A DNA stretch of 64,000 bases from Candidatus Omnitrophota bacterium (GTDB lineage: Bacteria; Omnitrophota; Omnitrophia; Omnitrophales; Aquincolibacteriaceae): positions 18,780 through 82,779 of the forward strand of contig CAISGE010000027.1 of NCBI GenBank assembly GCA_903884815.1. The letters run 5' to 3'. Below are positions 4,411 through 35,602 of the stretch, piece after piece. Under the pieces are notes generated by a model. It did no database searches and had not been told where the DNA came from. It saw nothing but the letters and a program-made list of their open reading frames with translations. Position 1 is the stretch's first letter. The number at the start of each line of letters is the position of its first letter. The translations under genes and the position numbers were made by a program.

Positions 4411-4950
4411 ATGGCTCAAAAAAAATATCGGGTTTTTCAAAAGAAAGTCATCTTTTCAAAGGGGCCCATACGCCTTGTGGATTGCAAGGTCCGGACCCCG
4501 CAAGGGAAAGTCCTGTCGCGGCAGATTCTGGAACATCCGGGCTGTGTGGTCGTTATTCCGCGGATGAACGCGGGGAAGTATGTCCTGGTGAAGCAGTACC
4601 GGTTCCCGCTTGAAAAACATCTCTGGGAATTTCCGGCGGGCGGCAAGGAACCCGGCGAAACCTTCCCGCATGCCGCGAAGCGTGAGCTTATGGAAGAGAT
4701 CGGGATGAAACCAGGCAAGCTTCAGAAGATTCTAGCCTTCTATCCCACTCCGGGCGTTTCCGGAGAAAAAATGCACGTTTTTCTCGCGACCGAGCTCTGC
4801 CCCGCCATCGCGGAAAAGGATGAGGACGAGGATTTTGAAGTCAAAGAATTCTCCTTGGCCGATATCGGACGGATGATTCAAAGTGGGGAGATCTGCGACG
4901 GCAAAACACTTATCGGATTTTTTTATTTGAAAAATTTGAAAAATCAGTAG
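4411..4950 (+). CDS. NUDIX hydrolase (ADP-ribose pyrophosphatase-like)
   Basis: Nudix box GGKEPGETFPHAAKRELMEEIGM (GX5EX7REUXEEXGU). Confidence 0.8.
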   Translation: MAQKKYRVFQKKVIFSKGPIRLVDCKVRTPQGKVLSRQILEHPGCVVVIPRMNAGKYVLVKQYRFPLEKHLWEFPAGGKEPGETFPHAAKRELMEEIGMKPGKLQKILAFYPTPGVSGEKMHVFLATELCPAIAEKDEDEDFEVKEFSLADIGRMIQSGEICDGKTLIGFFYLKNLKNQ

Positions 4951-11058: not shown

Positions 11059-11131
<73 letters not shown>

Positions 11132-20127: not shown

Positions 20128-21426
20128 ATGAAAATTGGGATCATTGGTTCTGGATATGTGGGACTTGTCACAGGAACTTGCCTAGCACATCTGGGGCATA
20201 CCGTCACTTGCGTGGACCAGGATCCCACCAAGATCCGGACGCTGAAGAAAGGCAAAATCCCGTTCTATGAGCCGGGCCTCATGGAAATGGTCCTCGAGTG
20301 CGTTGCAGCCAAACGCCTTTCCTTTACGACAGAAATATCGAAGATCGTCAATCGTTGCGAAGTTCTTTTTATCTGCGTCAATACGCCTCCTATGCCGGAC
20401 GGGGGTGCGGACTTAACCTTCGTGGAAAAGGTGGCCCGTCAGATCGCGACCCATTTACGAGGTTATTGCTTGGTGGTGGAGAAAAGCACCGTCCCTGTCG
20501 AAACAGGGGAATGGGTGCGCCAAACGATCAAACGGAATGTGAGAAAAGGCGTCCAGTTCGACGTCGCCTCGAACCCGGAGTTTCTCCGCGAAGGCTCCGC
20601 GATCCGTGATTTCCTTCAACCGGACCGCATCGTGATCGGTGTTTCAAGTGACCGCGCGGAAAAGCTCTTCCGGAAACTTTACAGTCCCCTCAAAGCGCCC
20701 ATGATCGTCACTGACATTAAAAGCGCCGAACTTATCAAGCATGCCGCCAATTCGTTTCTCGCGACCAAGATCTCTTTCACCAACGCGGTTTCAAGGATCT
20801 GCGACGCGGTCGGTGCAGACATTGAAAAGGTCGCTCTCGGAATGGGCCTTGATCCGCGTATCGGAAAACAATTTCTCAAAGCGGGTGTGGGTTTCGGCGG
20901 ATCCTGTTTTCCCAAAGATGTGAGCGCATTCCTCCATATCTCTGAAAAACTGGGCACACGTTTTGAACTTCTCGCGGACGTTTTGAAGATCAATGACGCT
21001 CAAGCGAAATATTTTGTGGAGGGAATCAAGAACTCCATGAAGACGCTGCGAGGAAAAACGATCGGTGTTCTTGGACTGGCTTTTAAACCTGACACAGATG
21101 ATATGCGCTCGGCACCTTCGATCCCAATCATTCAGATGCTTCAGAAAGAAGGAGCCCGCATCCTGGCTTATGATCCCCAGGCCGCCGCAAAAGCGGCTGA
21201 AACACTTCGCGATGTCAGTTATGTTTCAGCGCCGTATGCCGTCGCTCAAGGAGCGCACGCGATCGTCGTTCTGACGGAGTGGTCTGAATTTCTCAATCTG
21301 GACTGGGCAAGACTCAAAAAGTCCATGAAGGACCGCTTCTTTTTTGATGGCCGTAATATGTTTCAACCTGAGGAAATGAAAACACTCGGGTTCCGCTATT
21401 CGAGCATCGGCCGGCCTTCGGCCTAA
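20128..21426 (+). CDS. ugd: UDP-glucose 6-dehydrogenase (nucleotide-sugar dehydrogenase family)
   Basis: MKIGIIGSGYVGLVTG NAD-binding start. Catalytic GFGGSCFPKD motif. Confidence 0.85.
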   Translation: MKIGIIGSGYVGLVTGTCLAHLGHTVTCVDQDPTKIRTLKKGKIPFYEPGLMEMVLECVAAKRLSFTTEISKIVNRCEVLFICVNTPPMPDGGADLTFVEKVARQIATHLRGYCLVVEKSTVPVETGEWVRQTIKRNVRKGVQFDVASNPEFLREGSAIRDFLQPDRIVIGVSSDRAEKLFRKLYSPLKAPMIVTDIKSAELIKHAANSFLATKISFTNAVSRICDAVGADIEKVALGMGLDPRIGKQFLKAGVGFGGSCFPKDVSAFLHISEKLGTRFELLADVLKINDAQAKYFVEGIKNSMKTLRGKTIGVLGLAFKPDTDDMRSAPSIPIIQMLQKEGARILAYDPQAAAKAAETLRDVSYVSAPYAVAQGAHAIVVLTEWSEFLNLDWARLKKSMKDRFFFDGRNMFQPEEMKTLGFRYSSIGRPSA

Positions 21427-21441: not shown

Positions 21442-22173
21442 ATGAAAGGCGTCATTCTCGCGGGAGGTCTCGGAAGCCGGCTTTTCCCGCTCACCAAAGT
21501 CACCAATAAGCATCTTCTCCCTGTTTATAATAAACCGATGATTTATTATCCGATCGAAACCCTGGTGCGCGCCGGAGTGCGCGACATTCTTATCGTGACC
21601 GGCGGGAATTCCTCCGGGGATTTCCTCAAGCTCCTCGGGAATGGAAAACAGTTCGGCCTGAAACATATCAACTACACCTATCAGGAAGGCGAGGGCGGGA
21701 TAGCACACGCGCTAGGGCTCGCAGAACATTTTGTAGGAAAAGACAAAATGGTGGTGGTGCTTGGCGACAATATCGTTCAGGAAGATATCACGCCCCATGT
21801 CCAGCACTTCGATCAGCAAACGGAAGGCGCCCGGCTTCTTCTCAAGAAAGTCCCCGACCCTGAACGCTTTGGTGTCGCCACTTTCAAGAAAGGCCGTATC
21901 ACCGGGATCATCGAAAAACCCAGGAACCCGAAAAGCCCCTACGCCGTCATCGGCGTTTACATGTATGATGCGACAGTGTTCAGTTTTATCAAGACCCTCA
22001 AACCCTCCCGCAGGGGAGAACTTGAGATCACGGACGTGAACAACTGGTACCTCAAGCGCGGCGTTCTGGAATATGACCTCCTCAAAGGTTTCTGGACGGA
22101 TGCCGGCCAATTCGAATCTCTTCATCGCGCCAACACTCTCGTCGCTCGCCAGGCAGGTTATAAGTCTGTATGA
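21442..22173 (+). CDS. sugar-phosphate nucleotidyltransferase, short-form RmlA-like (glucose-1-phosphate thymidylyltransferase-like)
   Basis: MKGVILAGGLGSRLFPLT...NKPMIYYPIE signature. About 243 aa. AGGAGG RBS. Confidence 0.75.
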   Translation: MKGVILAGGLGSRLFPLTKVTNKHLLPVYNKPMIYYPIETLVRAGVRDILIVTGGNSSGDFLKLLGNGKQFGLKHINYTYQEGEGGIAHALGLAEHFVGKDKMVVVLGDNIVQEDITPHVQHFDQQTEGARLLLKKVPDPERFGVATFKKGRITGIIEKPRNPKSPYAVIGVYMYDATVFSFIKTLKPSRRGELEITDVNNWYLKRGVLEYDLLKGFWTDAGQFESLHRANTLVARQAGYKSV

Positions 22174-23150
22174 AGCGCCTGCTCGTCACCGGAGGCTGCG
22201 GTTTCATCGGTTCTAATTTCATCCGCTTTTTTCTCAAGAGCCGACCGGGATGGAGCGTGATCAATCTCGACAAGCTCAGCTATTCCGGCAATCCCGCGAA
22301 CCTTCGCGATCTTAGGGGCTCTTCCCGTTACAAATTCGTCAAAGGTGACATTCTCGACAAAAAACTTGTCCTTAAGTTGATGAAACATGCTTCGGGCGTT
22401 GTGCATTTCGCCGCGGAGACCCACGTCGACCGGTCCATCGAAAGCGCGGATGATTTCCTTAAAACCAATATCCTAGGGACTGCTTCTCTTCTTGAGGCCT
22501 CGCTCGCATGCGGAACCAAGAGATTCGTCCACATGGCCACCGACGAGGTTTACGGTTCGATCCCACGGGGGTATGCCGATGAGCGGGCACCGCTTCTCCC
22601 GAACAGCCCTTATTCCGCTTCGAAAGCAGGTGCGGACCTCCTGGTACGATCATTCCAGGAAACCTACAAGCATCCCGCCATGATCGTGCGTTGTACGAAT
22701 AATTACGGACCGTATCAATTCCCCGAAAAGGTTATCCCGCTCTTCGTGACCAATTTGATCGAAGGAAAGACCGTCCCGCTTTACGGGAATGGCAAGAACC
22801 GTCGCGACTGGATCTATGTCGAAGACGCTTGCCGGGCGATCCTGCTTGTCCTTGAGAAAGGTCGCGCTGGGGAGACTTACAATATCGGCGCGCATAACGA
22901 GATGAATAACATCGATCTGACTTTCGCGATCCTCCGTCATTTTGGAAAGGGTAAGGAGATGATCCGCTGCGTCAAAGATCGCCTCGGTCATGATCTGCGT
23001 TATGCCGTGAATTTCAATAAATTGAAGAAACTTGGCTTCAAGCCTCGATGGACGTTTGCGAAAGGGCTGGCCGTGACCGCGAAATGGTATCGCGAAAATC
23101 CGCAGTGGTGGCAACCCCTGAAACAAGATAAGTATACGGTCAAATCATGA
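22170..23150 (+). CDS. rfbB: dTDP-glucose 4,6-dehydratase
   Basis: MKRLLVTGGCGFIGSNF, catalytic YSASK and TDEVYG motifs. Overlaps the upstream gene (ATGA). Confidence 0.9.
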   Translation: MKRLLVTGGCGFIGSNFIRFFLKSRPGWSVINLDKLSYSGNPANLRDLRGSSRYKFVKGDILDKKLVLKLMKHASGVVHFAAETHVDRSIESADDFLKTNILGTASLLEASLACGTKRFVHMATDEVYGSIPRGYADERAPLLPNSPYSASKAGADLLVRSFQETYKHPAMIVRCTNNYGPYQFPEKVIPLFVTNLIEGKTVPLYGNGKNRRDWIYVEDACRAILLVLEKGRAGETYNIGAHNEMNNIDLTFAILRHFGKGKEMIRCVKDRLGHDLRYAVNFNKLKKLGFKPRWTFAKGLAVTAKWYRENPQWWQPLKQDKYTVKS

Positions 23151-24124
23151 CCGTTCAGGCTCCGATGAAGATCCTAATCACGGGTGCGGGAGGCATGCTC
23201 GGGACCGATCTGACAAATGTCCTAAAAGAAGATTATGAGATCCTGGGGCTGGAACGCCGTCCTGTCACGCATTTAACCGTCCCCTACGATATTTGCGACC
23301 TCACGCAAGCCCGTAAGACGCGGGACGCCATTCTGAGCCAAAGACCGGATCTCATCTTTCACACGGCAGCGATGACGGACGTAGACTATTGTGAAGGCCA
23401 TCAGGACGAAGCCCTGGAGAGCAATGTCGCAGCCACGGGAAATGTCGTGACGGCCGCAAATGAAATCGATGCGCCGGTCATCTTTTACAGCACCGATTAT
23501 GTTTTTGACGGAATGAAGTCTGGCGAGTATGACGAATCGGATACACCGAACCCTCTCAGCTTCTATGGAAAAACAAAACGCATGGGTGAAGAGGCACTTC
23601 TGAACGGTGCCCGACGGGCCGTCATTTTCCGCATCACCTGGCTCTTTGGGATCTGGGGTCGTAGCTTTCCGAAGGCTATTCTGCGCCAAGCTGCGGAGAT
23701 GAAGAAAATGAATGTCGTCAACGACCAGGTCGGCCGCCCCACATGGTCGTGGGATGTTGCCATCGCCATGCGGCACCTTTTGAAGAACAAGATAGAAACC
23801 ATCCTGCGCCCGGGAACAGAGATCTATAATCTTGGGAATTCCGGCACTGTCCACTGGGCAGACTACGCCCGTTTTATTTTAAAAAACTCCGGACTGGGCG
23901 ACGTCAAGGTCAAAGACATCCCAAGCTCACATCTTGAGCGCCCGGCACCGCGCCCGGCGAATTCGGTTCTGGCTCTCGGCAAGGCCGAAAAGGTCCTCGG
24001 TCTAAAACTGCGATCTTGGGAGGAAGCGACGCTGGAATTCCTGCCAAAACTTAAGGATGAAATGGCCGCCCTGGAAGCCAAAGAAAAGGCTAAGGCCGCT
24101 GAAAAGGAAAATCTGCCGTCATGA
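23147..24124 (+). CDS. rfbD: dTDP-4-dehydrorhamnose reductase (RmlD) with a Lys/Ala-rich C-terminal tail
   Basis: MKILITGAGGMLG. RmlD-like fold and length. The terminal tail is KEKAKAAEKENLPS. Confidence 0.8.
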   Translation: MTVQAPMKILITGAGGMLGTDLTNVLKEDYEILGLERRPVTHLTVPYDICDLTQARKTRDAILSQRPDLIFHTAAMTDVDYCEGHQDEALESNVAATGNVVTAANEIDAPVIFYSTDYVFDGMKSGEYDESDTPNPLSFYGKTKRMGEEALLNGARRAVIFRITWLFGIWGRSFPKAILRQAAEMKKMNVVNDQVGRPTWSWDVAIAMRHLLKNKIETILRPGTEIYNLGNSGTVHWADYARFILKNSGLGDVKVKDIPSSHLERPAPRPANSVLALGKAEKVLGLKLRSWEEATLEFLPKLKDEMAALEAKEKAKAAEKENLPS

Positions 24125-24202
24125 TTCTCTATTTTGAAGATAAACGGGTAATTATGACGGTCCCAATCACCCTCATTTTAAATAAAATCGAGATTGGGAC
24201 CG

Positions 24203-25153
24203 ATGCCTACTAAAAAGACATGCATTGTCACGGGAGGCGGGGGATTTCTGGGATCGCATCTTTGCGACCGTTTTTTGGCCAGAAAATGGCACGTTATCGC
24301 GATCGATAATTTCCTCACGGGGAACGAAAAAAATATCGCTCATCTCAAAACAAATAAGTCCTTTCACTTGATCCGACATGATGTCAGCAAAACGATCCAT
24401 ATCCCGGGCCGAGTGGATTATGTGCTTCACTTCGCCTCGCCGGCAAGCCCGCTGGATTATCTGGAATTTCCCATTCAGACACTCAAAGTCGGTGCGCTCG
24501 GAACGCACAATGCCCTGGGTCTTGCCAAAGACAAGAAAGCCGTTTTCCTTTTAGCCTCGACTTCCGAAGTCTACGGCGATCCGCTTGTCCATCCCCAAAC
24601 CGAAGAATACTGGGGGAATGTCAATCCCGTCGGACCCCGGGGTGTTTATGATGAGGCGAAACGTTTCGCGGAAGCCATCACCATGGCCTATCACCGAACG
24701 CATAAGTTAGACGCCAAGATCATCCGAATTTTCAACACCTATGGGCCGAGAATGCGCCTTCGCGACGGCCGGGCGATTCCGGCTTTTCTGTCCCAGGCTT
24801 TGACCGGAAAACCTCTGACGGTATTCGGCGACGGTCGCCAGACGCGAAGCCTTTGTTATGTCACCGATCTCGTTCGCGGCATCGAAAAACTTCTCCTTTC
24901 CGGTCTCAATGAACCCATCAATATTGGAAATCCCAATGAGATCTCCATGACAGACCTTGCAAAAAGGATCCTTCGAATTACCGGCAGCTCGAGCGGCATC
25001 GTCCACCGGAAACTCCCTGTCGACGATCCGAAGGTGCGCCAGCCCGATATTCGCAAAGCCAAAAAATATTTATCTTGGACTCCGGAGGTTCCGTTGGACG
25101 AAGGTTTGAAATACACGATTGAATATTTCAAACACGCCTTACGGAAGAAATAG
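24203..25153 (+). CDS. UDP-glucuronate decarboxylase-like SDR (UDP-xylose synthase / ArnA C-terminal-domain-like); an alternative TTG start lies at 24194
   Basis: [19 protein letters not shown]...[10 protein letters not shown], catalytic YDEAKR. About 315 aa, typical of UXS. Confidence 0.75.
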
Positions 25154-25872
25154 TGCCCCCCTTTCTTTCGGTGGTAATTCCCGCCTATAACGAAGAGAAG
25201 CGCCTTCAGTATTCCCTCGCCTCGGTGCTTGATTTTCTAAAACAACAATCGTACTTGTGGGAGATCCTTGTTTCGGATGACGGAAGTAGCGACGGGACAG
25301 CGGCTCTTGCCCGGGAGACGCTCAAAGGCCTGCCGCACCAAGTTTTGGTCTCACCCCTCAACCGGGGCAAAGGACACGCGGTCCGGCAGGGGGTACTGGC
25401 CGCTCATGGACATTACATACTTCACTCTGACGCTGATTTTTCGACCCCCATCGAAGAAGTCACCCGCTTCCTGGGCTATCTCGAGAAAGATTTTGATATC
25501 GTGATCGGTTCCCGAGCGCTTCCGGATTCCAAAGTAGAAGTCCGCCAAAATTTCATTAGGGAGACCATGGGGCGCACATTCAACCGTCTTGCGCGCCTTT
25601 TCTCCTTTAAGGGTATCCATGATTCGCAGTGCGGCTTTAAATGTTTTCGGGGGGAGGTGGCAAAAAATCTTTTCAGCCACTCGAGGCTGAATGGCTTCAG
25701 TTTTGATCCCGAGATCATCTTCCTCGCTCAAAAGAGAGGCTATCGCATCCGGGAAGAACCCGTGATCTGGCGGAATTCTCCACAAAGTCGCGTTCGGCTG
25801 ATCGCGGACCCGATTCATATGTTCTGGGATCTCCTCAAAATCCGTGGGATGCATCGCCACACAAAGCTCTAG
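25153..25872 (+). CDS. GT2 polyprenyl-phosphate/dolichyl-phosphate sugar synthase-like (Dpm1/ArnC-like, soluble form). GTG start overlapping the upstream stop.
   Basis: LSVVIPAYNEE...VSDDGSSDGT...DAD motifs. Confidence 0.8.
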   Translation: MPPFLSVVIPAYNEEKRLQYSLASVLDFLKQQSYLWEILVSDDGSSDGTAALARETLKGLPHQVLVSPLNRGKGHAVRQGVLAAHGHYILHSDADFSTPIEEVTRFLGYLEKDFDIVIGSRALPDSKVEVRQNFIRETMGRTFNRLARLFSFKGIHDSQCGFKCFRGEVAKNLFSHSRLNGFSFDPEIIFLAQKRGYRIREEPVIWRNSPQSRVRLIADPIHMFWDLLKIRGMHRHTKL

Positions 25873-26059: not shown

Positions 26060-27133
26060 ATGGAACATGAAAAAATGCTGGTGATGGGCAATGTGGCAAT
26101 GTCGGAGGCTGCCATAAGAGCAGGTTGCCGTTTTTACGCGGGCTATCCCATCACGCCACAAAATGAAGTCAGCGAGTATCTTGCCTCAAAGCTTCCGGCC
26201 GCTGGAGGAGTTTTCGTCCAGGCAGAGTCTGAGCTTGCCGCAATCAATATGGTCTACGGTGCCGCTTCAACAGGCGAAAGAGCCATGACCTCTTCCTCAA
26301 GCCCCGGCATCAGTCTTATGCAGGAAGCCATTTCCTTTATTGCCGCCGCACAGATCCCTTGTTTTATCGCAAATATCATGCGCGGTGGACCAGGACTCGG
26401 AAATATCCAAGGCTCTCAGGCGGATTATTTTCAGGCCACACGGGGCGGGGGACATGGGGATTATCGCCTCATTGTGCTGGCGCCGTGGTCGGTCCAGGAA
26501 ATGTATGACCTCACGACGCTCGCCTTTGAACTTGGCGACAAGTACCAGAATCCCGTCATGCTTCTGGCCGATGGCATCCTCGGACAAATGGCGGAAGCGA
26601 TCGAGTTCCGGGAACCCGTCGCGAAGAAAAAGGTTCCAAAGCCATGGGCGCTGACAGGCTGCGAAGGACGCAAGCCCAATGTCATACGGACGCTCTACCT
26701 CCAGCAAAAAGACGCTTTGGAAGAAAAAAACGCGGAACTCCAGGCAAAGTACGACAAGATCACCGCAGAACTCCAGCTTTCCGAAACCCGGTTCGCGGAA
26801 GATGCCGATATCGCCGTCGTGGCATACGGAACACCGGCACGCATCGCGCATTGGGCCATCAAAAAAGCACGCGAGCAGGGCGTGAAAGTCTGTCTTTTCC
26901 GCCCTATCACCCTGTGGCCTTTTCCGGTACTCGAACTCCGGAAAGTGGCCCGTCACTGCCGGAAAATTCTTGTGGTGGAAATGAGTCAGGGACAAATGAT
27001 CGAGGATGTGCGCCTCGCGAGAATTCCCGCAACCGTCGTGGACCCCAAAATAGAATTTATGGGACGAGGCGGGGGATGGTACCCGAAGCCGAAAGAATTG
27101 CTGGCCAAGATCCTGGAGGTTGCAAAGCCATGA
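26060..27133 (+). CDS. korA: 2-oxoacid:ferredoxin oxidoreductase subunit alpha
   Basis: GNVAMSEAAIRAGCRFYAGYPITPQNE...AESELAAINMVYGAASTGERAMTSSSSPG, matching the KorA/PorA family. Confidence 0.85.
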   Translation: MEHEKMLVMGNVAMSEAAIRAGCRFYAGYPITPQNEVSEYLASKLPAAGGVFVQAESELAAINMVYGAASTGERAMTSSSSPGISLMQEAISFIAAAQIPCFIANIMRGGPGLGNIQGSQADYFQATRGGGHGDYRLIVLAPWSVQEMYDLTTLAFELGDKYQNPVMLLADGILGQMAEAIEFREPVAKKKVPKPWALTGCEGRKPNVIRTLYLQQKDALEEKNAELQAKYDKITAELQLSETRFAEDADIAVVAYGTPARIAHWAIKKAREQGVKVCLFRPITLWPFPVLELRKVARHCRKILVVEMSQGQMIEDVRLARIPATVVDPKIEFMGRGGGWYPKPKELLAKILEVAKP

Positions 27134-27861
27134 ACGCCGAGAACCGCACGATCCGGAGCGGCCGCATGCACTATTGCCCCGTTTGCGGGCATACGATCGC
27201 TCAGCGTCTCATCGGGGATGTCATGGACGAGCTCGGTATCCGGGAAAGAACGATAGGGACCGCGCCGGTGGGTTGCGCCGTGCTTCTCTATGATTATTTC
27301 AACTGCGATATTATTGAGTGCCCGCACGGCAGGATTCCCGCCGTCGCCACGGGGATCAAAAGGATGCGGCCCGACAATATCGTGTTTGCTTACGGCGGAG
27401 ACGGCGACCTTCTTTCGATCGGACTCGCGGAAACCATTCACTGCGCGAACCGCGGCGAAAATATCACAATGATCTTCATCAATAATGCCGTCTACGGAAT
27501 GACCGGGGGGCAAATGGCGCCCACGACGCTCATCGGTCAAAAGACCATCACGACGCCGGAAGGCCGGATGTCCACAGAAACCGGATCGCCCCTAAGGATC
27601 TGTGAAATGTTCGCAACGCTCTCGAGTCCTGTTTTCATCGAACGCGTTGCGGTACACGACGCCCCGCACATGCAGCGTGCGAAGCAGGCGATCAGGAAGG
27701 CTTTTGTGAATCAGATCGAAGGAAAGGGTTTCTCTTTCGTCGAGGTGCTTTCAATGTGCCCGACCCATTGGCGCATGGGCGGCAAGGAATCCTGCCAATT
27801 CGTCGGCAATGAAATGGCCGGCTATTTTCCGATCAAAAAATTCAGGGATGTGGACGGATGA
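27130..27861 (+). CDS. korB: 2-oxoacid:ferredoxin oxidoreductase subunit beta (TPP-binding)
   Basis: CPVCGH...GGDGD...NNAVYGMTGGQ TPP motif. ATGA overlap with korA. The ORF-track start at 26644 is an out-of-gene extension. Confidence 0.85.
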   Translation: MNAENRTIRSGRMHYCPVCGHTIAQRLIGDVMDELGIRERTIGTAPVGCAVLLYDYFNCDIIECPHGRIPAVATGIKRMRPDNIVFAYGGDGDLLSIGLAETIHCANRGENITMIFINNAVYGMTGGQMAPTTLIGQKTITTPEGRMSTETGSPLRICEMFATLSSPVFIERVAVHDAPHMQRAKQAIRKAFVNQIEGKGFSFVEVLSMCPTHWRMGGKESCQFVGNEMAGYFPIKKFRDVDG

Positions 27862-28409
27862 TCGAAGAAAAAGTTTTTGTCGCGGGATTCGGCGGGCAGG
27901 GAGTCGTCGTGGCGGGGAACATCCTCGCTCATGCCGCACTGGAGGAGGGCCGTCATATTCTCGGGATGGTCTCCTACGGGGTCGAAGTCCGCGGAGGCGC
28001 GTCCCACAGCTTTGTCATCATCTCAGACCAAGAAATCGATTGCCCCATCATCGATGAAGCCACGCTCGGATTTGTGCTCAGCCAGGCGGCTTATGAGAAA
28101 TTCAAGACCAAAACGCGCCCTGACGGGGTTCTCTTCATCGATTCTACACAGGTGGGGAATGTGGATCCCGCGCAAACAACAGGCACCATCATCCAGATTC
28201 CCGCCACCCAGATGGCCCGCGAGATCGGGAACGAGCGCGTGACGAACATGATCATGCTGGGAGCCGCCATCCAGAAAACAGGCATCGTCAAGATGGCGAG
28301 TGCCGTCAAGGTCCTGGGCAAAGTCTTTAAAGGCCTCCGCAAAGATCTTATCTACGTCAACGAAAAAGCCCTCTCCACGGGCGCAGACCTCATGCGCCAG
28401 GCACATTGA
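27858..28409 (+). CDS. korC: 2-oxoacid:ferredoxin oxidoreductase subunit gamma
   Basis: VAGFGGQGVVVAGNILAHAA is the gamma-subunit signature. ATGA overlap with korB. Confidence 0.85.
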   Translation: MIEEKVFVAGFGGQGVVVAGNILAHAALEEGRHILGMVSYGVEVRGGASHSFVIISDQEIDCPIIDEATLGFVLSQAAYEKFKTKTRPDGVLFIDSTQVGNVDPAQTTGTIIQIPATQMAREIGNERVTNMIMLGAAIQKTGIVKMASAVKVLGKVFKGLRKDLIYVNEKALSTGADLMRQAH

Positions 28410-28484
28410 TCCCTCGCTTTTAATACCACTTTTGATATTCAGGGCGGGAAATTCTGCGGGTGCAGGGTGCGAAAATTTTATTGC

Positions 28485-29228
28485 CTACAGCTTATCACTT
28501 AGCAAAGCTCCAGCTTTATACCTCTTCGATGTGCGGTAGCTCCAAAACTTCAGACCTTCCCATAACGCGAAGCCCATGATTTTCAGATTGACGGAAGATT
28601 TGCCCCATTGACGGCCGCGGTGATTGGAGGGGATCTCCTTGATGCGAAATCCAAGATCGTGGGCCTTCACAATGATCTCGGGAAGCACAAAGAGAGATTT
28701 CGAGGTAAGGTCGATCCGGTCGAGGACTTTGCGGCTCCAGGCCTGCGACCAGTTGTAGTCATTGATGCGGATCCTGAACAGATAGTTGAGAAGAAAGATA
28801 TAGATCACGGACAAAAAGAACCGGAAAAGCTGATAAGCGTTCCTCTGCCATCTCACCCCGAGCACCAGATCCGCTTCATCCCGCAGAAAGATATTCACAA
28901 AATCAGGGATCTCCGAAGAATCGAACTCCTCGTCCGCCCCCACGTACATGAGGTATTTCCCGCGCGCCGCAGCCATACCATCTTTCAGAGAACACGTATA
29001 GCCCTTGTTCTGGTCATGAATAATAAGTCGGGTGTGGGGATATTTCGGGATTTCCGATTTAAGGACGGGGAGGGTCTTGTCTTTGCTGCCATCCTCGATA
29101 AGTATCACTTCCCAGTTCCATTCCGGATGAGCGTTGAGAACGGTAAAGAGATTCGCAAGCATCCGAGCGATATTCTCTTCCTCGTTGTAGACCGGCGTAA
29201 TAAAACTGATGAATACGGGGGAATCCAT
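28485..29228 (-). CDS. GT2 polyprenyl-phosphate sugar synthase-like (Dpm1/ArnC-like)
   Basis: ISFITPVYNEEENI...LIEDGSKDKT...GADEE. Start at MDSPVF (29228). Divergent from the carbamoyltransferase gene. Confidence 0.8.
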   Translation of the reverse strand: MDSPVFISFITPVYNEEENIARMLANLFTVLNAHPEWNWEVILIEDGSKDKTLPVLKSEIPKYPHTRLIIHDQNKGYTCSLKDGMAAARGKYLMYVGADEEFDSSEIPDFVNIFLRDEADLVLGVRWQRNAYQLFRFFLSVIYIFLLNYLFRIRINDYNWSQAWSRKVLDRIDLTSKSLFVLPEIIVKAHDLGFRIKEIPSNHRGRQWGKSSVNLKIMGFALWEGLKFWSYRTSKRYKAGALLSDKL

Positions 29229-29348
29229 ACGTGTAAGATTAATGTTTTTAGAGGCCGATGTCAATTGTCGCTCGAAGGGTTTTCTGTTAACATGCCCGAC
29301 ATTCGTGACAGAACGCGCGTTTGAGCGCAAACGATCGGGAGAAAATTC

Positions 29349-31166
29349 TTGAACGTCCTTGGTATTTCAGCTTTTTATCATGACAGCGCGTCCTGCCTCA
29401 TCCGGGAAGGGGCGATCGTCGCCGCGGCCCAGGAAGAGCGTTTTACGCGCAAAAAACATGACTTCTCTTTTCCCCGGCACGCCATCGATTTCTGCCTCAA
29501 GAAAGGCGAGCTCCGATCTTCAGATCTTGATTGTGTCGCATTCTACGACAAACCATTCCTCAAATTCGAACGTATCCTGGAGACTTATCTGGCCTACGCG
29601 CCTCACGGGATCGCATCCTTTCTTCAGGCCATGCCGCTTTGGATCAAACAGAAACTCTGGATGAAAGACTACCTCCAGACCGAACTCAACTTTAATGGCA
29701 AGATCATTTTCCCCGAACACCATCAGTCGCATGCTGCATCCGCATTCTTCCCTTCGCCATTTGAAGAGGCCGCATTCCTCACCATGGACGGCGTCGGAGA
29801 ATGGGCCACCACCAGCTACGGCGTCGGAAAAGGAAACAAGATCGAGATTCAGGCCGAGATCCGGTTTCCCCATTCCCTCGGACTCCTGTATTCCGCTTTC
29901 ACTTATTACACCGGCTTCCGAGTCAACTCCGGCGAATACAAGGTGATGGGCCTCGCGCCTTACGGCAAGCCGATCTTCAAGGACCTCATCCTCAAAGAAC
30001 TGATCGATCTGAAAGAGGACGGCTCCTTCAAGCTCAATATGAAATACTTCGATTACGCTGCAGGTCTCCGCATGACAAATGGCCGTTTTCATAAACTTTT
30101 CGGCGCGCCTCCGCGAAAGCCCGAGTCCCGGGTCACTCAACGTGAAATGGACCTCGCTCGCTCGATCCAGGAAGTCACTGAGGAAGTCATGCTTCGAGTC
30201 ACGCGACATGTCCATGAAGTGACGGGGCAGAAGAATCTTTGCCTCGCCGGAGGTGTCGCACTGAACTGCGTCGGCAATGGCCGAATTCTTCGTGAAGGTC
30301 CGTTCAAAAATATCTGGATACAGCCTGCCTCAGGGGACGCCGGCGGCGCTTTGGGAGCGGCCTCCTTTGCATGGCACCAATACCTGGACAAGCCACGGAC
30401 CGTAAATGGAAAAACCGACAGCATGCGAGGCTCTTATCTAGGGCCCGAATACCCAAACGAAGACATCGAGTCATTCCTCACGGAACATCGAATCCCTTTC
30501 ACGAAACTCACGGACAAGGAACTCCCGGAAAAGATCGCGGATCTTATCGCTCAGGAAAAAGTTATTGGCTGGTTCCAGGGTCCTATGGAGTTCGGCCCCC
30601 GTGCCTTGGGCGGTCGCTCCATTCTCGGGGACTCCCGCTCTCCCAAAATGCAGGAGCAAATGAATCTCAAGATCAAGTTCCGTGAGAGCTTCAGGCCGTT
30701 CGCGCCATCCGTCACGCTTGAAAGAGTGTCGAATTATTTTGAACTCGAGACCGAAAGTCCCTATATGCTTCTCGTAGCGCCGGTGCAAAAGAAGTGGCGC
30801 CGTGAAATGACGGAGACTGAAAAGAAACTGGAGGGGATCGAACTACTGAACGTAAAGCGCTCCGAGATCCCAGCCGTCACGCATGTCGATTATTCCGCAC
30901 GCGTCCAAACCATCACCCCGGTGCAAAATCCCCGGTTTTACGCCCTACTCAAAGCCTTTGACGAGAAGCATGGATGCCCCGTCATGATCAATACCTCCTT
31001 CAATGTGCGCGGAGAGCCGATCGTCTGCACGCCTGAGGATGCATTCCGCTGTTTTATGCGCACGCAAATGGACCATCTGGTCCTGGGTAATTATCTGCTT
31101 ACGAAGACAGAACAGAAGCCCCTTGAAAAAGACAGCGAATGGATGAAAGAGTTCGAACTCGATTGA
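29349..31166 (+). CDS. carbamoyltransferase, NodU/CmcH/NovN/TobZ/SxtI family (TTG start)
   Basis: LGISAFYHDSA N-terminus, HH(Q/L)SHAASAF, and the C-terminal YrdC/Kae1-like half with NTSFN. 605 aa. Confidence 0.85.
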   Translation: MNVLGISAFYHDSASCLIREGAIVAAAQEERFTRKKHDFSFPRHAIDFCLKKGELRSSDLDCVAFYDKPFLKFERILETYLAYAPHGIASFLQAMPLWIKQKLWMKDYLQTELNFNGKIIFPEHHQSHAASAFFPSPFEEAAFLTMDGVGEWATTSYGVGKGNKIEIQAEIRFPHSLGLLYSAFTYYTGFRVNSGEYKVMGLAPYGKPIFKDLILKELIDLKEDGSFKLNMKYFDYAAGLRMTNGRFHKLFGAPPRKPESRVTQREMDLARSIQEVTEEVMLRVTRHVHEVTGQKNLCLAGGVALNCVGNGRILREGPFKNIWIQPASGDAGGALGAASFAWHQYLDKPRTVNGKTDSMRGSYLGPEYPNEDIESFLTEHRIPFTKLTDKELPEKIADLIAQEKVIGWFQGPMEFGPRALGGRSILGDSRSPKMQEQMNLKIKFRESFRPFAPSVTLERVSNYFELETESPYMLLVAPVQKKWRREMTETEKKLEGIELLNVKRSEIPAVTHVDYSARVQTITPVQNPRFYALLKAFDEKHGCPVMINTSFNVRGEPIVCTPEDAFRCFMRTQMDHLVLGNYLLTKTEQKPLEKDSEWMKEFELD

Positions 31167-31179
31167 TCACACCCTTTTC

Positions 31180-31623
31180 TTGAATGAGAATCAGAATGGA
31201 AAAAACATGGTCATCGCGGAAATAAAGAAAATTGAGTCGAGCGAAAAAAAACTCAGGGAGTTCGGATTCCTGATCGGAGGCGTGCTCTGCGCTCTCGCGT
31301 GCCTCCTTATGTGGCGGGGAAGGGGAAGCTACCGCTATTTTCTAATTCCAGGTATCACCCTCGTGATCGCGGGAGCCCTCTCACCGCGCGTGCTGAAACC
31401 CTTTCAAAAAGCGTGGATGACGCTCGCGATACTGATGAACTGGGTCATGACGAGGGTCCTCCTCTCTGTCCTTTTTTATCTCGCAATCACACCCATCGGA
31501 CTCTTCATGCGCCTTACGGGTAAGGATATCTTGAACGAACGACTTGAGCCTCGCAAGTTAAGCTATTGGAAGATCCGCCCCTCCAACCCTCACGCCCCCG
31601 CTGAATACGAAAAGCAGTTTTGA
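31180..31623 (+). CDS. SxtJ-like small membrane protein of unknown function (2-3 TM)
   Basis: 147 aa, immediately after the carbamoyltransferase. Size and position match the SxtJ-type proteins that commonly follow O-carbamoyltransferase genes. Recalled from memory, not searched. Confidence 0.5.
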   Translation: MNENQNGKNMVIAEIKKIESSEKKLREFGFLIGGVLCALACLLMWRGRGSYRYFLIPGITLVIAGALSPRVLKPFQKAWMTLAILMNWVMTRVLLSVLFYLAITPIGLFMRLTGKDILNERLEPRKLSYWKIRPSNPHAPAEYEKQF

Positions 31624-31689
31624 GTTTTTCGTTTCGGCCGCGGGCATCATCTGATAGTATATCGCGCGTTCGTTTACATAGGAGGCCCT

Positions 31690-31848
31690 TTGGGCAAGCT
31701 TGGCATTCTTAAAGAATTCTGGGATTTTCTGAAAGTTCGGAAGAAATGGTGGCTAACGCCGATCGTTTTGGTAATGATCCTCTTGGGCGCTTTGATCGTC
31801 TTTTCTCAAGGCTCCGCACTTTCTCCTTTTATCTATACGCTTTTCTAG
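31690..31848 (+). CDS. SxtK-like very small protein (52 aa, one TM). Absent from the ORF track because it is under 60 aa and starts with TTG.
   Basis: GGAGG 4 nt upstream of the TTG. Translation LGKLGILKEFWDFLKVRKKWWLTPIVLVMILLGALIVFSQGSALSPFIYTLF. Same frame and direction as the SxtJ-like gene. Matches the size of SxtK-type partners. Confidence 0.45.
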   Translation: MGKLGILKEFWDFLKVRKKWWLTPIVLVMILLGALIVFSQGSALSPFIYTLF

Positions 31849-31923
31849 GAATCATGCCGCGTAAGCCCCTCAAATACCTGATGGGTTGATCGCTACAGCT
31901 TAAACAGCACCACGAATTAAGAA

Positions 31924-32718
31924 ATGGAGATTTTGAAAATGAATAAGGCCGCATTAACCGTCGTTGTCATTGCCAAGAACGAAGAGAAGCGCCTTGCCGA
32001 ATGCCTCAAAAGCGCCGCCTTTGCGGCGGAGATCGTCGTCCTGGATGACATGTCAACGGACCGGACGATTGAGATCGCCAAGTCGTTTGGAGCCAAGGTC
32101 TTCCAGCGCGCCATGGATATCGAGGGAACGCATCGGAATTACGCCTACAGCCTCGCGACACAACCCTGGGTTTTCAGCCTTGATGCCGACGAACGGATCA
32201 CTCCGGAGCTCGCAGCGGAACTCACTGCCATCGCGTCTAAACCCATCGATCAGGTTTCGGACGTTGCCTACTGCATGCCCGTGAAGACCTTCATCGGAAC
32301 GGACTGGATCCGAGGCGGAGGCTATTATCCCGCACCCAAGACGCGATTTTTCAAAAAAGGCCAGTTTAAATACGAAGACGCTCGTGTCCATCCCCGGATG
32401 TTCTATGAAGGCACCTGCGGGAACCTGAAGGGCGACATCCTTCACTATTCGAGTCCCAGCTGGGAGAACTGGCTTGCCAAGTTCAACCGCGAAACCACCC
32501 TCGAGGCCGAGAAGTGGGTAAAAGACGGTCGCCCCATGGGTCCGTGGCGTGTCTACCGAAAAGCCTGCAGCCGCTTTCTGAAATATTACTTCCAAAAGGA
32601 CGGCATCAAGACCGGGTACACGGGGTTTTTCATGTCCTTCATGCATTCGGCCTATCAGATCATAACTTTCGCGAAATACCGTGAGATGAAGCGCGCTCAA
32701 GAAGGCGCCCCCAAATAG
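31924..32718 (+). CDS. glycosyltransferase family 2 (WaaE/KdtX-like LPS core-type)
   Basis: LTVVVIAKNEEKRLAECL...VLDDMSTD...DADE. Confidence 0.8.
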   Translation: MEILKMNKAALTVVVIAKNEEKRLAECLKSAAFAAEIVVLDDMSTDRTIEIAKSFGAKVFQRAMDIEGTHRNYAYSLATQPWVFSLDADERITPELAAELTAIASKPIDQVSDVAYCMPVKTFIGTDWIRGGGYYPAPKTRFFKKGQFKYEDARVHPRMFYEGTCGNLKGDILHYSSPSWENWLAKFNRETTLEAEKWVKDGRPMGPWRVYRKACSRFLKYYFQKDGIKTGYTGFFMSFMHSAYQIITFAKYREMKRAQEGAPK

Positions 32719-32725
32719 GCGTGCC

Positions 32726-33838
32726 ATGAAAGTCCCGTATTTCGACGTCTCCAGGCAACATCAAAAGTTCGCGATCGAAGCCCAGGCCGCTCTCGAAAAG
32801 ATCCTGAAAAGCGGCGCCTATATTCTTGGCCCCGCATTGAAGGACCTCGAAGCTGAGTTCGCTGCGTATGTGGGCACCCGGTTCGCAATCGGCGTCGGTT
32901 CGGGGACGGACGCCCTGACCTTCAGCCTCAAAGCCCTCGATATAAAAAAAGGGGATGAGGTCATTGTCCCGTCTTTTACATTCACCTCAACAGCACTCGC
33001 CGTTCTGCATCTTGGGGCAATACCGGTCTTCGCCGATGTTGATGAGAAGACCTTCAACCTGGATCCCAAGTCCGTAGAGAAAGCCCTTAGCAAAAAAACC
33101 AGAGCGCTGATCCCAGTTCATCTCTTCGGCCAATGCGCCGATATGACCGCGCTCATGGCTTTGGCAAAGCAAAAAAAACTCAAGGTCGTCGAGGACGCGT
33201 GCCAGGCCCACGGCGCGCTTTGGAATAAGGTCATGGCCGGAGCTTTCGGAAACGCCGGATGTTTCAGCTTTTATCCGACCAAGAACCTCGGGGGGATCGG
33301 AGACGGCGGCATGGTCACAACCTCGGATGAAAAACTTCTGAAGCGCGTCACGCAGTACCGCAATCTCGGCAAGGGGATCGAGGATCCCTTTGTCCATGAC
33401 GAGATCGGCTGGACCAGCCGCCTCGACAGCCTCCAGGCCGCGTTCCTTAGTATCAAACTACGCTTTCTTGACGAACTGAACAGGGAACGTCGCGCGGTGG
33501 CCGAGCTTTATCACCAGAAGTTGTCCGCCACACCGCTCATCCTTCCGCGGGAAACAACCCAAGCCTATCATGTTTATCATCTTTACGTTGTCCGTGTCAC
33601 GGACGAGAAACGGGATGCTTTAAAAGCCCATCTCGCTGCGGAAGGTATCCCGACCATGGTCCATTACGCGACGCCGGTCGATGCGCAGCCCGTCATGAAA
33701 AAACAAAAGATCCGGAAGGTCAAGTTGCCTGTCACGGAAATTCTCCGTGAGGAAGTATTGACGCTCCCACTTTTCCCGGGCATGACGGAGCCCGAGATTG
33801 CGGCTGTGGCCGGTTCGATCAGAAAATTTTACAGTTAA
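32726..33838 (+). CDS. DegT/DnrJ/EryC1/StrS-family PLP-dependent sugar aminotransferase (ArnB/PglE-like)
   Basis: About 370 aa. GSGTDAL, conserved Lys region FSFYPTKNLG, fold consistent with sugar 3-/4-aminotransferases. Confidence 0.85.
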   Translation: MKVPYFDVSRQHQKFAIEAQAALEKILKSGAYILGPALKDLEAEFAAYVGTRFAIGVGSGTDALTFSLKALDIKKGDEVIVPSFTFTSTALAVLHLGAIPVFADVDEKTFNLDPKSVEKALSKKTRALIPVHLFGQCADMTALMALAKQKKLKVVEDACQAHGALWNKVMAGAFGNAGCFSFYPTKNLGGIGDGGMVTTSDEKLLKRVTQYRNLGKGIEDPFVHDEIGWTSRLDSLQAAFLSIKLRFLDELNRERRAVAELYHQKLSATPLILPRETTQAYHVYHLYVVRVTDEKRDALKAHLAAEGIPTMVHYATPVDAQPVMKKQKIRKVKLPVTEILREEVLTLPLFPGMTEPEIAAVAGSIRKFYS

Positions 33839-33918: not shown

Positions 33919-34479
33919 ATGACCAAGCCTTCAAAAAAAGTTGTTTTCATTGACCGGGACGGTGTCATCAATGTCGATCTCTGGAAATATGTCGAAACCT
34001 GGAAAGAATTCAAATTTGAAAAGGGCGTTCTGGATGCCCTTCTCACCCTTACTGAAAAAGGGTTCGATATCTACATTATCTCGAATCAAGCAGGCGTCGG
34101 AGACGGGATCTTTACTGAAGCGGCCATGTGGCAGGTCCACGAAAAAATGGTAGCGGTGATGGCCAAGAAAGGCATCAAGATCCGCGGTGCCCGCTTCTGC
34201 ACACACGGAAAGAAGGAACGCTGTGAATGCCGAAAGCCGAAGACACTGCTGCTCGAAAAGGCTGTAGCGGGTATTACCTTCGACCGGAAGAAAACTTTTT
34301 TCGTGGGGGACAAATTGAGCGACCTCGAGGCGGGGATCAATTTCGGTGTTCGCACTCTCCTTGTCCGTACGGGATATGGCGCCGAAACCGAGAAGAAACT
34401 GGGCAAAAAGTTCCGCCCCGACCATATTGTGGACAATCTTAAAGACGCCGTTCCCATCATCGTCAAGGCAGCCGCATAA
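33919..34479 (+). CDS. HAD-IIIA phosphatase, GmhB-like (D,D-heptose 1,7-bisphosphate phosphatase / histidinol-phosphatase family)
   Basis: VFIDRDGVIN (DxDGT/V motif I), ISNQ, Zn-binding CxH...CxC, GDKLSD motif. Confidence 0.75.
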   Translation: MTKPSKKVVFIDRDGVINVDLWKYVETWKEFKFEKGVLDALLTLTEKGFDIYIISNQAGVGDGIFTEAAMWQVHEKMVAVMAKKGIKIRGARFCTHGKKERCECRKPKTLLLEKAVAGITFDRKKTFFVGDKLSDLEAGINFGVRTLLVRTGYGAETEKKLGKKFRPDHIVDNLKDAVPIIVKAAA

Positions 34480-34486
34480 GCGCCCT

Positions 34487-35602
34487 ATGAAAATCGACAT
34501 TATTCATGCCACGGCAGGGGAAGGACACCGCAAGATCGCGATGGCCGTCCAGGACGGGCTGACACGCCTCCACCGGACCGATCTCCAGATCCGGCTCATG
34601 AATTGCCTCGATTATACCGATGCCACTTTTCAGAAAACCTACGCGCCCATTTATTACTGGGCGGTCCGCCACGCGCCTAATCTTTGGGGCGGCTCCTACG
34701 AGATACTGGACCAGGCTTGGGTGTATCAGCCACTTCGCCCTTTGCGGGCACTGACTAACAATGTTCATGCCAAAGCTTTACTCGACGATGTTGTAAAGAA
34801 CCAACCGGATGTCATCGTCTCGACCCATTTCCTGCCACCCGAGATCCTGGGTCGCGCCAAGCAAAAGGGCCTTATCAAATCTAAGATGATCACGGTTATT
34901 ACGGATTTTTATCCGCATACGTTTTGGGTGAACCCCGGAACCGATCATTACTGGGTCATGGCCGATGAAACCAAGCAAGATCTCATCCGCCGCGGCATTC
35001 CGGCCGGAATCATCACCGTCGGAGGCATTCCGGTCGTCCCGACTTTCAAGCCCTCAGGAAGGAAGAAAGAGATACTGAAAACGCACGGACTTGATGAAAA
35101 CCGATATACAATCCTCCTCACCAGCGGCAGTTTTGGTCTCGGCCCCCAAGAAGCGATCCTCGAAGAACTTAAAGCGTTCAAAGACCGGGTCCAGTGCTTT
35201 GTGGTCTGTGCCAACAACAAAGAGCTCAAAGCGATCCTGGAAAGCAAGGCCTATCCTTTCCCCGTCAAGATCTTCGGATTCATTGATTTCATGCCCGAAC
35301 TTATGGAGGCAAGCGATCTCATGGTGGCAAAATCGGGCGGGTCCACAACCTCCGAAGCGCTCACCAAAGGCGTCGTGATGGTCGTGATGGCCCCGATCCC
35401 CGGGCAAGAGACCCGGAATGTCAAACTCCTCAAGCTCCGCGACGCCGCGTATTTTCTCAATGACCCGCACGAGATCCACGCGATCGTCAAGGGTATCCTG
35501 GAGGATCCTGCTTCATTGCAAAAGAAACGCGATGCTATCAAGCGACTGGCGAAACCCGATGCCTCCGATGATCTGGTGAAACTGATCCTCGGATCCTGCT
35601 AA
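34487..35602 (+). CDS. MGDG-synthase/UgtP-like diacylglycerol glycosyltransferase (GT28 family)
   Basis: N-terminal MGDG_synth-like region (IIHATAGEGH...) and a C-terminal GT-B half (KSGGSTTSEAL...PIPGQE), collinear with Bacillus UgtP. Confidence 0.75.
   Translation: MKIDIIHATAGEGHRKIAMAVQDGLTRLHRTDLQIRLMNCLDYTDATFQKTYAPIYYWAVRHAPNLWGGSYEILDQAWVYQPLRPLRALTNNVHAKALLDDVVKNQPDVIVSTHFLPPEILGRAKQKGLIKSKMITVITDFYPHTFWVNPGTDHYWVMADETKQDLIRRGIPAGIITVGGIPVVPTFKPSGRKKEILKTHGLDENRYTILLTSGSFGLGPQEAILEELKAFKDRVQCFVVCANNKELKAILESKAYPFPVKIFGFIDFMPELMEASDLMVAKSGGSTTSEALTKGVVMVVMAPIPGQETRNVKLLKLRDAAYFLNDPHEIHAIVKGILEDPASLQKKRDAIKRLAKPDASDDLVKLILGSC

Follow-up and report, generated by a model that had tools for sequence, protein, structure and literature searches.

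In saxitoxin (sxt) gene clusters, two small genes, sxtJ (405 bp) and sxtK (165 bp), accompany the carbamoyltransferase gene sxtI and are followed by sxtL, which encodes a GDSL lipase; sxtJ,K,L-like genes are also grouped together in the suomilide gene cluster. In the sxt literature of 2025-2026, the function of SxtJ and SxtK is hypothesized, the two being proposed to "work in conjunction with SxtI." Here we analyze a trio of genes of the same families in a 64,000-nt stretch of Candidatus Omnitrophota contig CAISGE010000027.1 (the whole stretch is referred to below as the window), encoding a carbamoyltransferase (CT), an SxtJ-family membrane protein, and a DUF5989/SxtK microprotein. This trio is already catalogued and very widespread, and the window copy is an Omnitrophota member of the known SxtI/J/K module in a lipopolysaccharide (LPS)-like context. 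As a tentative interpretation, which we favor without holding it firmly, the module may act as a carbamoyl relay in which a cytoplasmic CT would deliver its group, via SxtJ and Tyr49 of the microprotein, to an envelope glycan.

Two further described systems bear on this proposal. DltX, a membrane microprotein of ∼49 aa, carries D-alanine on the invariant Tyr of a C-terminal extracellular "acyl shuttle" hexapeptide, FXYXXF, and passes it from the MBOAT protein DltB to the SGNH protein DltD, and the same motif is found on the own C-terminus of other bacterial MBOATs, such as PatA (FIYANF) (PMC12148441). The DltX protein of L. plantarum ends in NQAKFIYNEF (PMC13653941). In Pseudomonas, WapO (PA5005) is a putative 7-O-carbamoyltransferase of LPS heptose II and is encoded in the LPS core cluster together with heptosyltransferases.

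The carbamoyltransferase-SxtJ-SxtK trio of the window

We compared the window with Pfam, NCBIfam, and public gene calls. The trio consists of three open reading frames (ORFs) on the plus strand, each opening with TTG, at positions 29349-31166 (605 aa), 31180-31623 (147 aa), and 31690-31848 (52 aa), and its features are as follows.

29349..31166, plus strand: SxtI-type O-carbamoyltransferase, 605 aa, TTG start, with an N-terminal Kae1/ASKHA-like and a C-terminal YrdC-like domain
31207..31623, plus strand: SxtJ-family membrane protein, probably 138 aa from the ATG at 31207 (the ORF opens at TTG 31180)
31690..31848, plus strand: DUF5989/SxtK microprotein, 52 aa (Pfam DUF5989)
31828..31845, plus strand: candidate acyl-shuttle (FxYxxF) motif, microprotein codons 47-52 (F-I-Y-T-L-F) before the TAG stop, as read from the sequence
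31834-31836, plus strand: Tyr49 codon of the microprotein

The first ORF matched both CT families of Pfam over their full length (Carbam_trans_N, E = 2.6e-104; Carbam_trans_C, E = 1.8e-73). The second matched SxtJ (PF19588; E = 4e-13, 50.3 to 50.6 bits, cutoff of 24.4), and the third matched DUF5989 (PF19451; E = 5.6e-26, 90.8 bits, cutoff of 27) over model positions 2 to 49 of 49, which places both small proteins above the Pfam cutoffs for the families to which a first-pass annotation of this DNA had likened them. No NCBIfam model matched either of the two, and an exact-sequence look-up returned no public names for the window's SxtJ and DUF5989 proteins; NCBI gives relatives the names "SxtJ family membrane protein" and "DUF5989 family protein," and the names on close homologues point to a Candidatus Omnitrophota bacterium as the source.

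The first-pass annotation had described a 605-aa NodU/CmcH-family CT with a TTG start, on which the ORF list, both Pfam domains, and the public gene call agree, and a 52-aa single-transmembrane (TM) peptide, which is DUF5989/SxtK by Pfam and has the length of the public gene call. Its likening of the trio to sxtI-sxtJ-sxtK in size and order is likewise borne out: the Pfam families of the three genes match, as does their order, and their sizes are similar. For the 147-aa polytopic protein, the SxtJ assignment was upheld by Pfam and the length was not: since SxtJ homologues are nearly all 136 to 143 aa long and public calls on identical contigs begin at ATG 31207, the protein probably comprises 138 aa, the ORF being 9 codons too long. 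The public gene calls on the identical contigs agree with the 605-aa and 52-aa lengths, including the TTG starts. Shine-Dalgarno-like sites lie 4 nt upstream of the start of the 52-aa protein (AGGAGG) and 6 nt upstream of that of the CT (GGGAGA). In a promoter and terminator scan of positions 28400-32800, sites were no more common than in shuffled sequence, and no second copy of the CT, SxtJ, or DUF5989 gene was found within the 64-kb window.

The CT aligned with solved structures over residues from about 3 to 590 (7xb6, 307 bits; NovN, 303; GdmN, 295; TobZ, 259 to 262) and, as judged from its sequence, is a two-domain TobZ-type carbamoyltransferase. In TobZ, the YrdC-like domain reportedly forms carbamoyl-AMP, which the Kae1-like domain then consumes (Parthier et al. 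2012). The window CT is 56 to 73% identical (median, 62%) to the CTs linked to SxtJ and SxtK (J/K-linked) in more than 15 phyla, with which it shares invariant HH.SH, DG.GE, GD.G, GPRALG.RS, and NTSFN blocks; the HHxxH, DG.GE, GD.G, and GPRALG.RS blocks, whose conservation among 69 clade members is at least 95%, probably belong to the metal and nucleotide sites, by comparison with the TobZ structure. Relative to 7xb6, the J/K-linked clade carries ∼20 extra residues near positions 485-505. Conservation of this degree would be unusual in a tailoring enzyme with a different acceptor in each genome, and it suggests a constant acceptor or constant protein partners. That the CTs are 56 to 73% identical across phyla yet score only ∼260 to 307 bits against small-molecule CTs would fit an unchanging acceptor, for which the microprotein tail is a candidate, better than a variety of glycans.

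Conservation of the module, the microprotein tail, and the SGNH partner

Scanning 185,579 species genomes with a DUF5989 alignment yielded at least 573 confirmed matches, from which 80 loci were kept for counts. These loci came from more than 15 phyla in total, with representatives in Planctomycetota, Acidobacteriota, Nitrospirota, Gemmatimonadota, Omnitrophota, Pelagibacteraceae, Gammaproteobacteria, Bacteroidota, Ignavibacteria, KSB1, Elusimicrobia, Cyanobacteria, a candidate phyla radiation (CPR) lineage, and others. Genes for CT, SxtJ (J), and DUF5989 (K) lay on one strand within 4 kb in 69 of the 80 loci, and SxtJ was present in 72. The order was CT-J-K in 43 loci, J-K-CT in 21, J-CT-K in 4, and CT-K-J in 1; in 8 loci the DUF5989 gene stood alone, one of these being at a contig edge. 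Because 69 of 80 loci from more than 15 phyla carry all three genes, the arrangement is far beyond chance, and the statement of the first-pass annotation that SxtJ/K homologues occur beside carbamoyltransferases holds across this sample.

The module is also found on plasmids and in small genomes. SxtJ and DUF5989 were detected together by tblastn on 46 to 47 plasmids, with hosts including Sinorhizobium (pSymB), Ensifer, Planctomycetota, Gemmatirosa, Methylosinus, Leisingera, and Planktothrix, and a CT gene was adjacent in all nine plasmid loci inspected (the Leisingera locus wraps around the record origin). Streamlined genomes such as those of Pelagibacteraceae (SAR11) carry the module as well. 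A word-index-free search of 1.84 billion cluster representatives (E ≤ 1e-3) put the size of the DUF5989 family at 3,910 clusters at 50% identity.

The microprotein is laid out as an amphipathic basic N-terminus (..EFWDFLKVRKKWW), one TM helix formed by a single hydrophobic stretch at residues 21-38, a Gly/Ser linker, and a C-terminal PFIYTLF directly before the stop, and its homologues are 49 to 52 aa long. Among nine DUF5989 sequences spanning Omnitrophota, Gemmatimonadota, Planctomycetota, and Alphaproteobacteria, the residues E9, K18, K19, W21, P24, G33, and P46-F47-I48-Y49-T50-x-F52 were invariant, a degree of conservation far above expectation for a single-pass peptide. We then turned to two homologue sets that had both been picked independently of the motif. 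F.Y..F was C-terminal in all 120 of the 120 close homologues, with the consensus P-F-[IV]-Y-[TSAV]-[LI]-F-stop, and among 150 representatives at 50% identity it was found in 143, lying at the extreme C-terminus in 121; the remaining representatives had heterogeneous junk tails resembling read-through gene calls. Variation within the motif was limited to the [IV], [TSAV], and [LI] positions, the F, Y, and F residues being constant, and the probability that any one given hexamer reads F.Y..F by chance is about 4e-5. The microprotein has a net charge of +4 before the TM helix and none after it, and by the positive-inside rule its C-terminal tail is predicted to be extracytoplasmic.

SxtJ is modeled by AlphaFold2 with three long hydrophobic helices and ends in a conserved basic tail containing SYW and a terminal (K/R)Q(F/Y). 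No fold relative of SxtJ was found, and neither SxtJ nor SxtK showed similarity to known transporters.

A fourth component recurs beside the module. Lipase_GDSL_2 was the commonest Pfam family in both the first (7 of 124) and the second (6 of 117) neighbors, and iterative searching revealed an SGNH-family ORF no more than 2.5 kb from the module in 30 of the 80 loci at E < 1e-10 and in 35 at E < 1e-5. A fixed SGNH hidden Markov model was matched in 41 of the 80 K loci, as against 3 of the 50 unrelated loci that served as controls (Fisher P = 3e-8). S. meliloti and Methylosinus have the genes arranged as SGNH/GDSL hydrolase-J-K-CT. In most of the SGNH neighbors, a single N-terminal hydrophobic signal anchor precedes a conserved (L/V)(A/G)E, and the GxS, N, and DxxH blocks are present in most of the module-linked proteins, whose fold is SGNH. 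One SGNH protein beside K (locus L065) exceeded the Pfam cutoff for AlgX, an SGNH-like acetyltransferase, and others matched this family weakly. In two loci, L041 (8691-10153) and L065 (2163-4957), K and SGNH genes are adjacent while CT and J are absent from the available sequence; L065, a contig of 8 kb, additionally encodes an LPS-kinase-family protein, a GT4, and an Elm1-like protein. From the SGNH side the link is loose, one of three homologues lying beside CT-J-K and two standing alone. Small ORFs adjoining the stand-alone SGNH homologues (L147 and L149) are not K-like.

Individual loci showed further variation. Candidate natural fusions of DUF5989 with CT, SxtJ, or larger proteins were rejected, the longer proteins being N-terminally over-extended calls or carrying junk tails. 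In a metagenomic locus of order SGNH-CT-J-K (L148, 7230-10700), the CT (947 aa) bears a SAM methyltransferase domain as a C-terminal fusion, which hints at a methylated carbamoyl product or at a second modification by the same machine. Two CT paralogues, one of the J/K-linked clade (916 bits) and one divergent (445 bits), flank J-K in a gammaproteobacterial locus (L085, 5701-11576), and in another locus (L067, 904-2750) DUF5989 occurs with neither CT nor SxtJ nearby, just 3' of a carbamoyl-phosphate synthase large-subunit gene. The S. meliloti pSymB module (L007/L009, at about 483-487 kb) has the order SGNH-J-K-CT and lies ∼8 kb from a galE-GT-DUF995-GH26-DUF995 polysaccharide cluster, probably the locus for an arabinose-containing polysaccharide. 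The PLSDB gene tables, which are known to be incomplete, omit J and K for most Sinorhizobium replicons.

Gene neighborhoods and the link to envelope glycans

The trio of the window lies in a housekeeping chromosomal region (glutamate synthase, rpoN, lptD, PriA, RecG, gap-pgk-tpi, fab genes, SMC, and RecA). Upstream of it, the gene order is lptD, ugd, RmlA-/RmlB-/RmlD-like genes, an epimerase gene, a GT2 gene, a 2-oxoacid:ferredoxin oxidoreductase operon, and a GT2 gene on the minus strand; downstream, CT-J-K is followed by genes for GT2, DegT, a GmhB-like HAD phosphatase, a GT28/MGDG-synthase-like protein, UDG, and PriA.

20128-21426, plus strand: ugd
21442-25153, plus strand: RmlA-, RmlB-, and RmlD-like genes and an epimerase/dehydratase gene
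25153-25872, plus strand: GT2
26060-28409: 2-oxoacid:ferredoxin oxidoreductase operon with three subunits (POR_N/PFOR_II, TPP_enzyme_C, POR gamma)
28485..29330, minus strand: GT2, Dpm1/ArnC-like, divergent (Pfam Glycos_transf_2; public calls of 247-259 aa)
31924-32718, plus strand: GT2
32726-33838, plus strand: DegT/ArnB-like sugar aminotransferase
33919-34479, plus strand: GmhB-like HAD phosphatase
34346-35602 (ORF), plus strand: GT28/MGDG-synthase-like glycosyltransferase

The GT2 genes, the DegT aminotransferase gene, and ugd, which the first-pass annotation had named as neighbors, are all real by Pfam and NCBIfam, with the qualification that the oxidoreductase operon interrupts the set. 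This operon (26060-28409) splits the "glycan cluster" in two, and identical public contigs place it likewise. The divergent GT2 (28485..29330) matched the ArnC-type model of NCBIfam with an E value of 4e-13, below that model's cutoff. Among the Pfam-scanned ORFs of the window, no genes for Wzx/flippase, Wzy/polymerase, Wzy_C, GT-C, or GT9 heptosyltransferase were found.

Several Omnitrophota relatives (SxtJ 41 to 70% identical) carry CT-J-K followed by genes for a GT9 heptosyltransferase, GT4s, and Bac_transf, and two have GT2s and a Wzy_C/O-antigen-ligase-like gene just upstream of CT-J-K; elsewhere a contig edge borders the trio on this side, and L004 and L005 lack the Wzy_C side. Two relatives run on into GT2-DegT-HAD-MGDG_synth, as in the window, and L004 continues further into UDG-PriA. 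The LPS-core/O-antigen-like insert that the relatives carry in this shared frame is missing from the window genome. In another Omnitrophota genome, the trio lies among thioredoxin, formyltransferase, and enolase genes. In one Omnitrophota relative (L095, 8001-10253), a Fic-domain gene and a 79-aa ORF stand between sxtJ and the DUF5989 gene, both of them intact, and the product of the latter ends in PFVYTLF.

Across phyla, the flanks are extremely diverse. We counted 127 Pfam families in 124 immediate neighbors and 124 families in 117 second neighbors, GT2 matching fewer than 2 of the 124 immediate neighbors. At least one glycan-type gene occurred within five genes in 26 of 68 loci and at least two in 14 of 68, and clustering of 571 neighbors by BLAST gave no family present in more than 6 of the 68 loci. 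As a further example of heterogeneous flanks, a Planctomycetales metagenome-assembled genome has a gene of the AbiEii toxin family (L015, 5923-6603) at the second position upstream of its trio. The idea that the trio belongs to glycan clusters in general is rejected on these diverse flanks and the 26-of-68 count. Because its flanks vary so widely, the module is autonomous, glycan clusters being one of its homes and not its defining context. For the present Omnitrophota lineage, a link to envelope glycans is plausible from the gene order. Of the earlier proposal that a membrane-linked sugar is O-carbamoylated, what remains plausible is thus its application here, where LPS-type synteny is conserved, whereas the glycan setting is not kept across phyla. 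The trio as a gene set is not new, the module being already named in public annotation, and with its diverse flanks across phyla it is not particular to glycan clusters.

Other parts of the window carry features apart from the trio. A second small envelope-related group at 55-4950 includes genes for an HtrL_YibB-family protein, a GT2 (3064-4041), and a NUDIX hydrolase, as well as two ORFs with no Pfam match (836-1858 and 1860-2738). Two GGDEF diguanylate cyclase genes in succession (14907-17716), one of which also encodes GAF domains, immediately precede lptD. A single tRNA-Thr(CGT) gene (11059-11131) stands between the glutamate synthase genes and rpoN, with no signs of an integrated element.

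Possible mechanisms and comparison with known systems

In the carbamoyl relay that we favor, the CT would convert carbamoyl phosphate and ATP to carbamoyl-AMP in the cytoplasm, following the family chemistry known from TobZ, and would dock on SxtJ via the basic conserved C-terminal tail of the latter, which is probably cytoplasmic. The carbamoyl group would then be loaded onto the invariant Tyr49 of the FIYTLF tail, analogous to D-alanine on the FIYNEF of DltX and to acetate on the C-terminal Tyr of PatA; for this, the microprotein tail may reach down a J-lined cavity, as the DltX tail does into DltB. From the flexible tail, the group would pass either to an SGNH transferase or straight to an acceptor beyond the cytoplasmic membrane. 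The SGNH/GDSL protein with a signal anchor (the SxtL position), which is found next to the module in about 40 to 50% of other genomes, would perform the last transfer, and the partner absent from the window may be encoded elsewhere or be dispensable. The likely acceptor here would be an LPS-like or glycolipid glycan built by the products of the adjacent GT2, DegT, and GT28 genes. In its general form, the proposal would make CT-SxtJ-SxtK, together with a frequent SGNH protein, an MBOAT-independent tyrosine shuttle that transfers carbamoyl to envelope polymers (in cyanobacteria, to saxitoxin precursors), which we regard as possible if somewhat doubtful.

Several observations weigh against the relay. 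No SGNH-family ORF is present in the 64-kb window, more than half of the module loci have none nearby (30 of 80 do, at 2.5 kb and E < 1e-10), and in about half the entire locus lacks one. No MBOAT was detected among the Pfam-scanned ORFs of the window, and neither an MBOAT nor an AT3 family recurs among 241 module neighbors. The SxtJ family alignment contains no invariant His, and no catalytic residue was identified in it. Since there is neither an MBOAT or AT3 protein nor an invariant His in SxtJ, the membrane-crossing step would have no known catalyst. The predicted outside location of the microprotein C-terminus has the positive-inside rule as its sole basis, and in an hhalign comparison of DUF5989 with DltX the TM helix, the turn, and the motif fell in register at a level that was not significant (P = 0.023, probability of 2%). 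The solved CT relatives carbamoylate small-molecule hydroxyls directly, with no partners. Carbamoyl-serine intermediates of serine hydrolases are usually long-lived, so that turnover by an SGNH protein is chemically uncertain.

In a simpler reading, SxtJ and SxtK would only anchor the CT at the inner face of the membrane, or present its substrate, and the CT would directly O-carbamoylate a lipid-linked sugar before export. The acceptor would then be undecaprenyl- or lipid A-core-linked, resembling the putative carbamoylation of heptose II in Pseudomonas LPS by WapO. All characterized members of the CT family transfer directly to a hydroxyl, the conserved basic tail of SxtJ could bind the CT, and WapO has been proposed to carbamoylate LPS heptose; moreover, the trio lies in an LPS-core/O-antigen-like cluster by GT9 in several Omnitrophota relatives, and the window has a GmhB-like phosphatase and no SGNH partner. 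We consider this explanation somewhat less likely than the relay. It leaves unexplained the invariant FxYxxF at the microprotein C-terminus, predicted to be extracytoplasmic, as well as the enrichment of SGNH genes, the K-SGNH pairs that lack a CT, and the very high conservation of the CT across unrelated genomic contexts, and the gene table shows WapO flanked by wapH and PA5006, not by small J/K-type genes. This reading is the membrane-tether idea of the first-pass annotation; the FxYxxF tail that it leaves unexplained is the best-conserved part of the 52-aa protein, and the SGNH protein is the most recurrent additional partner.

The diversity of the flanks, about 60% of loci having no glycan gene within five genes, would also fit tailoring of a small molecule, in which a soluble or membrane-permeant metabolite is carbamoylated, J and K aid its export, sequestration, or self-protection, and the nearby glycan genes are coincidental. 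The sxtI-J-K and suomilide clusters are indeed natural-product clusters, and housekeeping genes surround the trio in one Omnitrophota relative. This reading appears improbable, given that no nonribosomal peptide synthetase, polyketide synthase, amidinotransferase, or similar core enzymes are encoded in the window, itself a housekeeping region, that the module is carried even by streamlined genomes, for instance those of Pelagibacteraceae, that LPS-type synteny is kept in this lineage, and that SxtJ and SxtK are unlike known transporters. The annotation of SxtL as a decarbamoylase in the sxt literature and the structural proximity of the SGNH partner to hydrolases and esterases would be in line with the reverse activity, the microprotein and SGNH protein removing or editing carbamoyl groups, or with J and K being regulatory or assembly factors that have no chemical role. 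This we judge very improbable: a pure esterase has no need of a tyrosine-bearing microprotein, K is bound far more tightly to CT (69 of 80 loci) than to the SGNH protein, and in all characterized systems the motif is a donor-side shuttle.

The shuttle motif and the SGNH partner provide a mechanistic hypothesis for a family of 3,900 clusters that we did not find in the searched literature, in which DUF5989 was unmentioned and "acyl shuttle" was never joined with carbamoyl (subscription-only papers lay outside the search). If the relay is correct, the Dlt/Pat mechanism would extend to a new donor chemistry that operates with no MBOAT, and carbamoylation would be a third extracytoplasmic "acylation" route beside MBOAT-SGNH and AT3-SGNH. 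Functions would be assigned or reassigned to SxtJ, SxtK, and SxtL in saxitoxin biosynthesis, and carbamoylation would emerge as a surface modification common among uncultured phyla. Should the relay be incorrect, the window contains one more annotated SxtI/J/K module beside LPS-type genes.

Among known systems, the Dlt system resembles the module in layout. DltX (46 to 49 aa, single TM, ...KFIYNEF) and the DUF5989 protein (52 aa, single TM, ...PFIYTLF) are built alike, and DltX genes that we retrieved from metagenomes by a DNA pattern encode an amphipathic N-terminus, one TM helix, a small polar turn, and FIYxxF directly before the stop. Further likenesses to the Dlt and Pat systems are the cytoplasmic adenylate-forming activating enzyme and the membrane-anchored extracytoplasmic SGNH protein as a frequent module partner. 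In contrast to those systems, the module has no MBOAT and no carrier protein, its membrane partner is the small SxtJ, and it would transfer carbamoyl instead of an acyl ester. A Pfam scan of the DUF5989 protein gave no DltX-family match at E values up to 1, and the relation between the two appears to be a likeness of motif, architecture, and partners, with homology not demonstrable. Because no MBOAT is found in the window or recurs beside the module, the latter cannot be placed with the Dlt/Pat-type MBOAT systems and would at most resemble them in its way of working.

The antibiotic-tailoring enzymes TobZ, GdmN, and NovN, as well as 7xb6, share full-length two-domain similarity with the window CT; they differ from it in being stand-alone soluble enzymes, and the J/K-linked clade is internally far more conserved. 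WapO is likened to the module by gene context, not by sequence: Omnitrophota relatives place the trio directly before GT9, whereas the window has no GT9 and the gene table of WapO shows no SxtJ/SxtK-like genes. In the crocagin system (CgnD/CgnI), CgnD has been assigned as a very slow leader peptidase, which has no bearing on the window with its lack of an SGNH gene.

The sxt clusters differ from the window in setting, as the latter contains neither toxin core genes nor an SGNH gene and combines chromosomal housekeeping with a glycan context in Omnitrophota. In composition, sxtI-J-K and the window trio are made up of the same families, as described above. A GDSL/SGNH gene follows in sxtI-J-K-L and likewise in many module loci, among them L093 from a cyanobacterium (CT-J-K-SGNH), and the GPRALGRS site of SxtI that is cited in a preprint corresponds to the GPRALG.RS block of the module CT.

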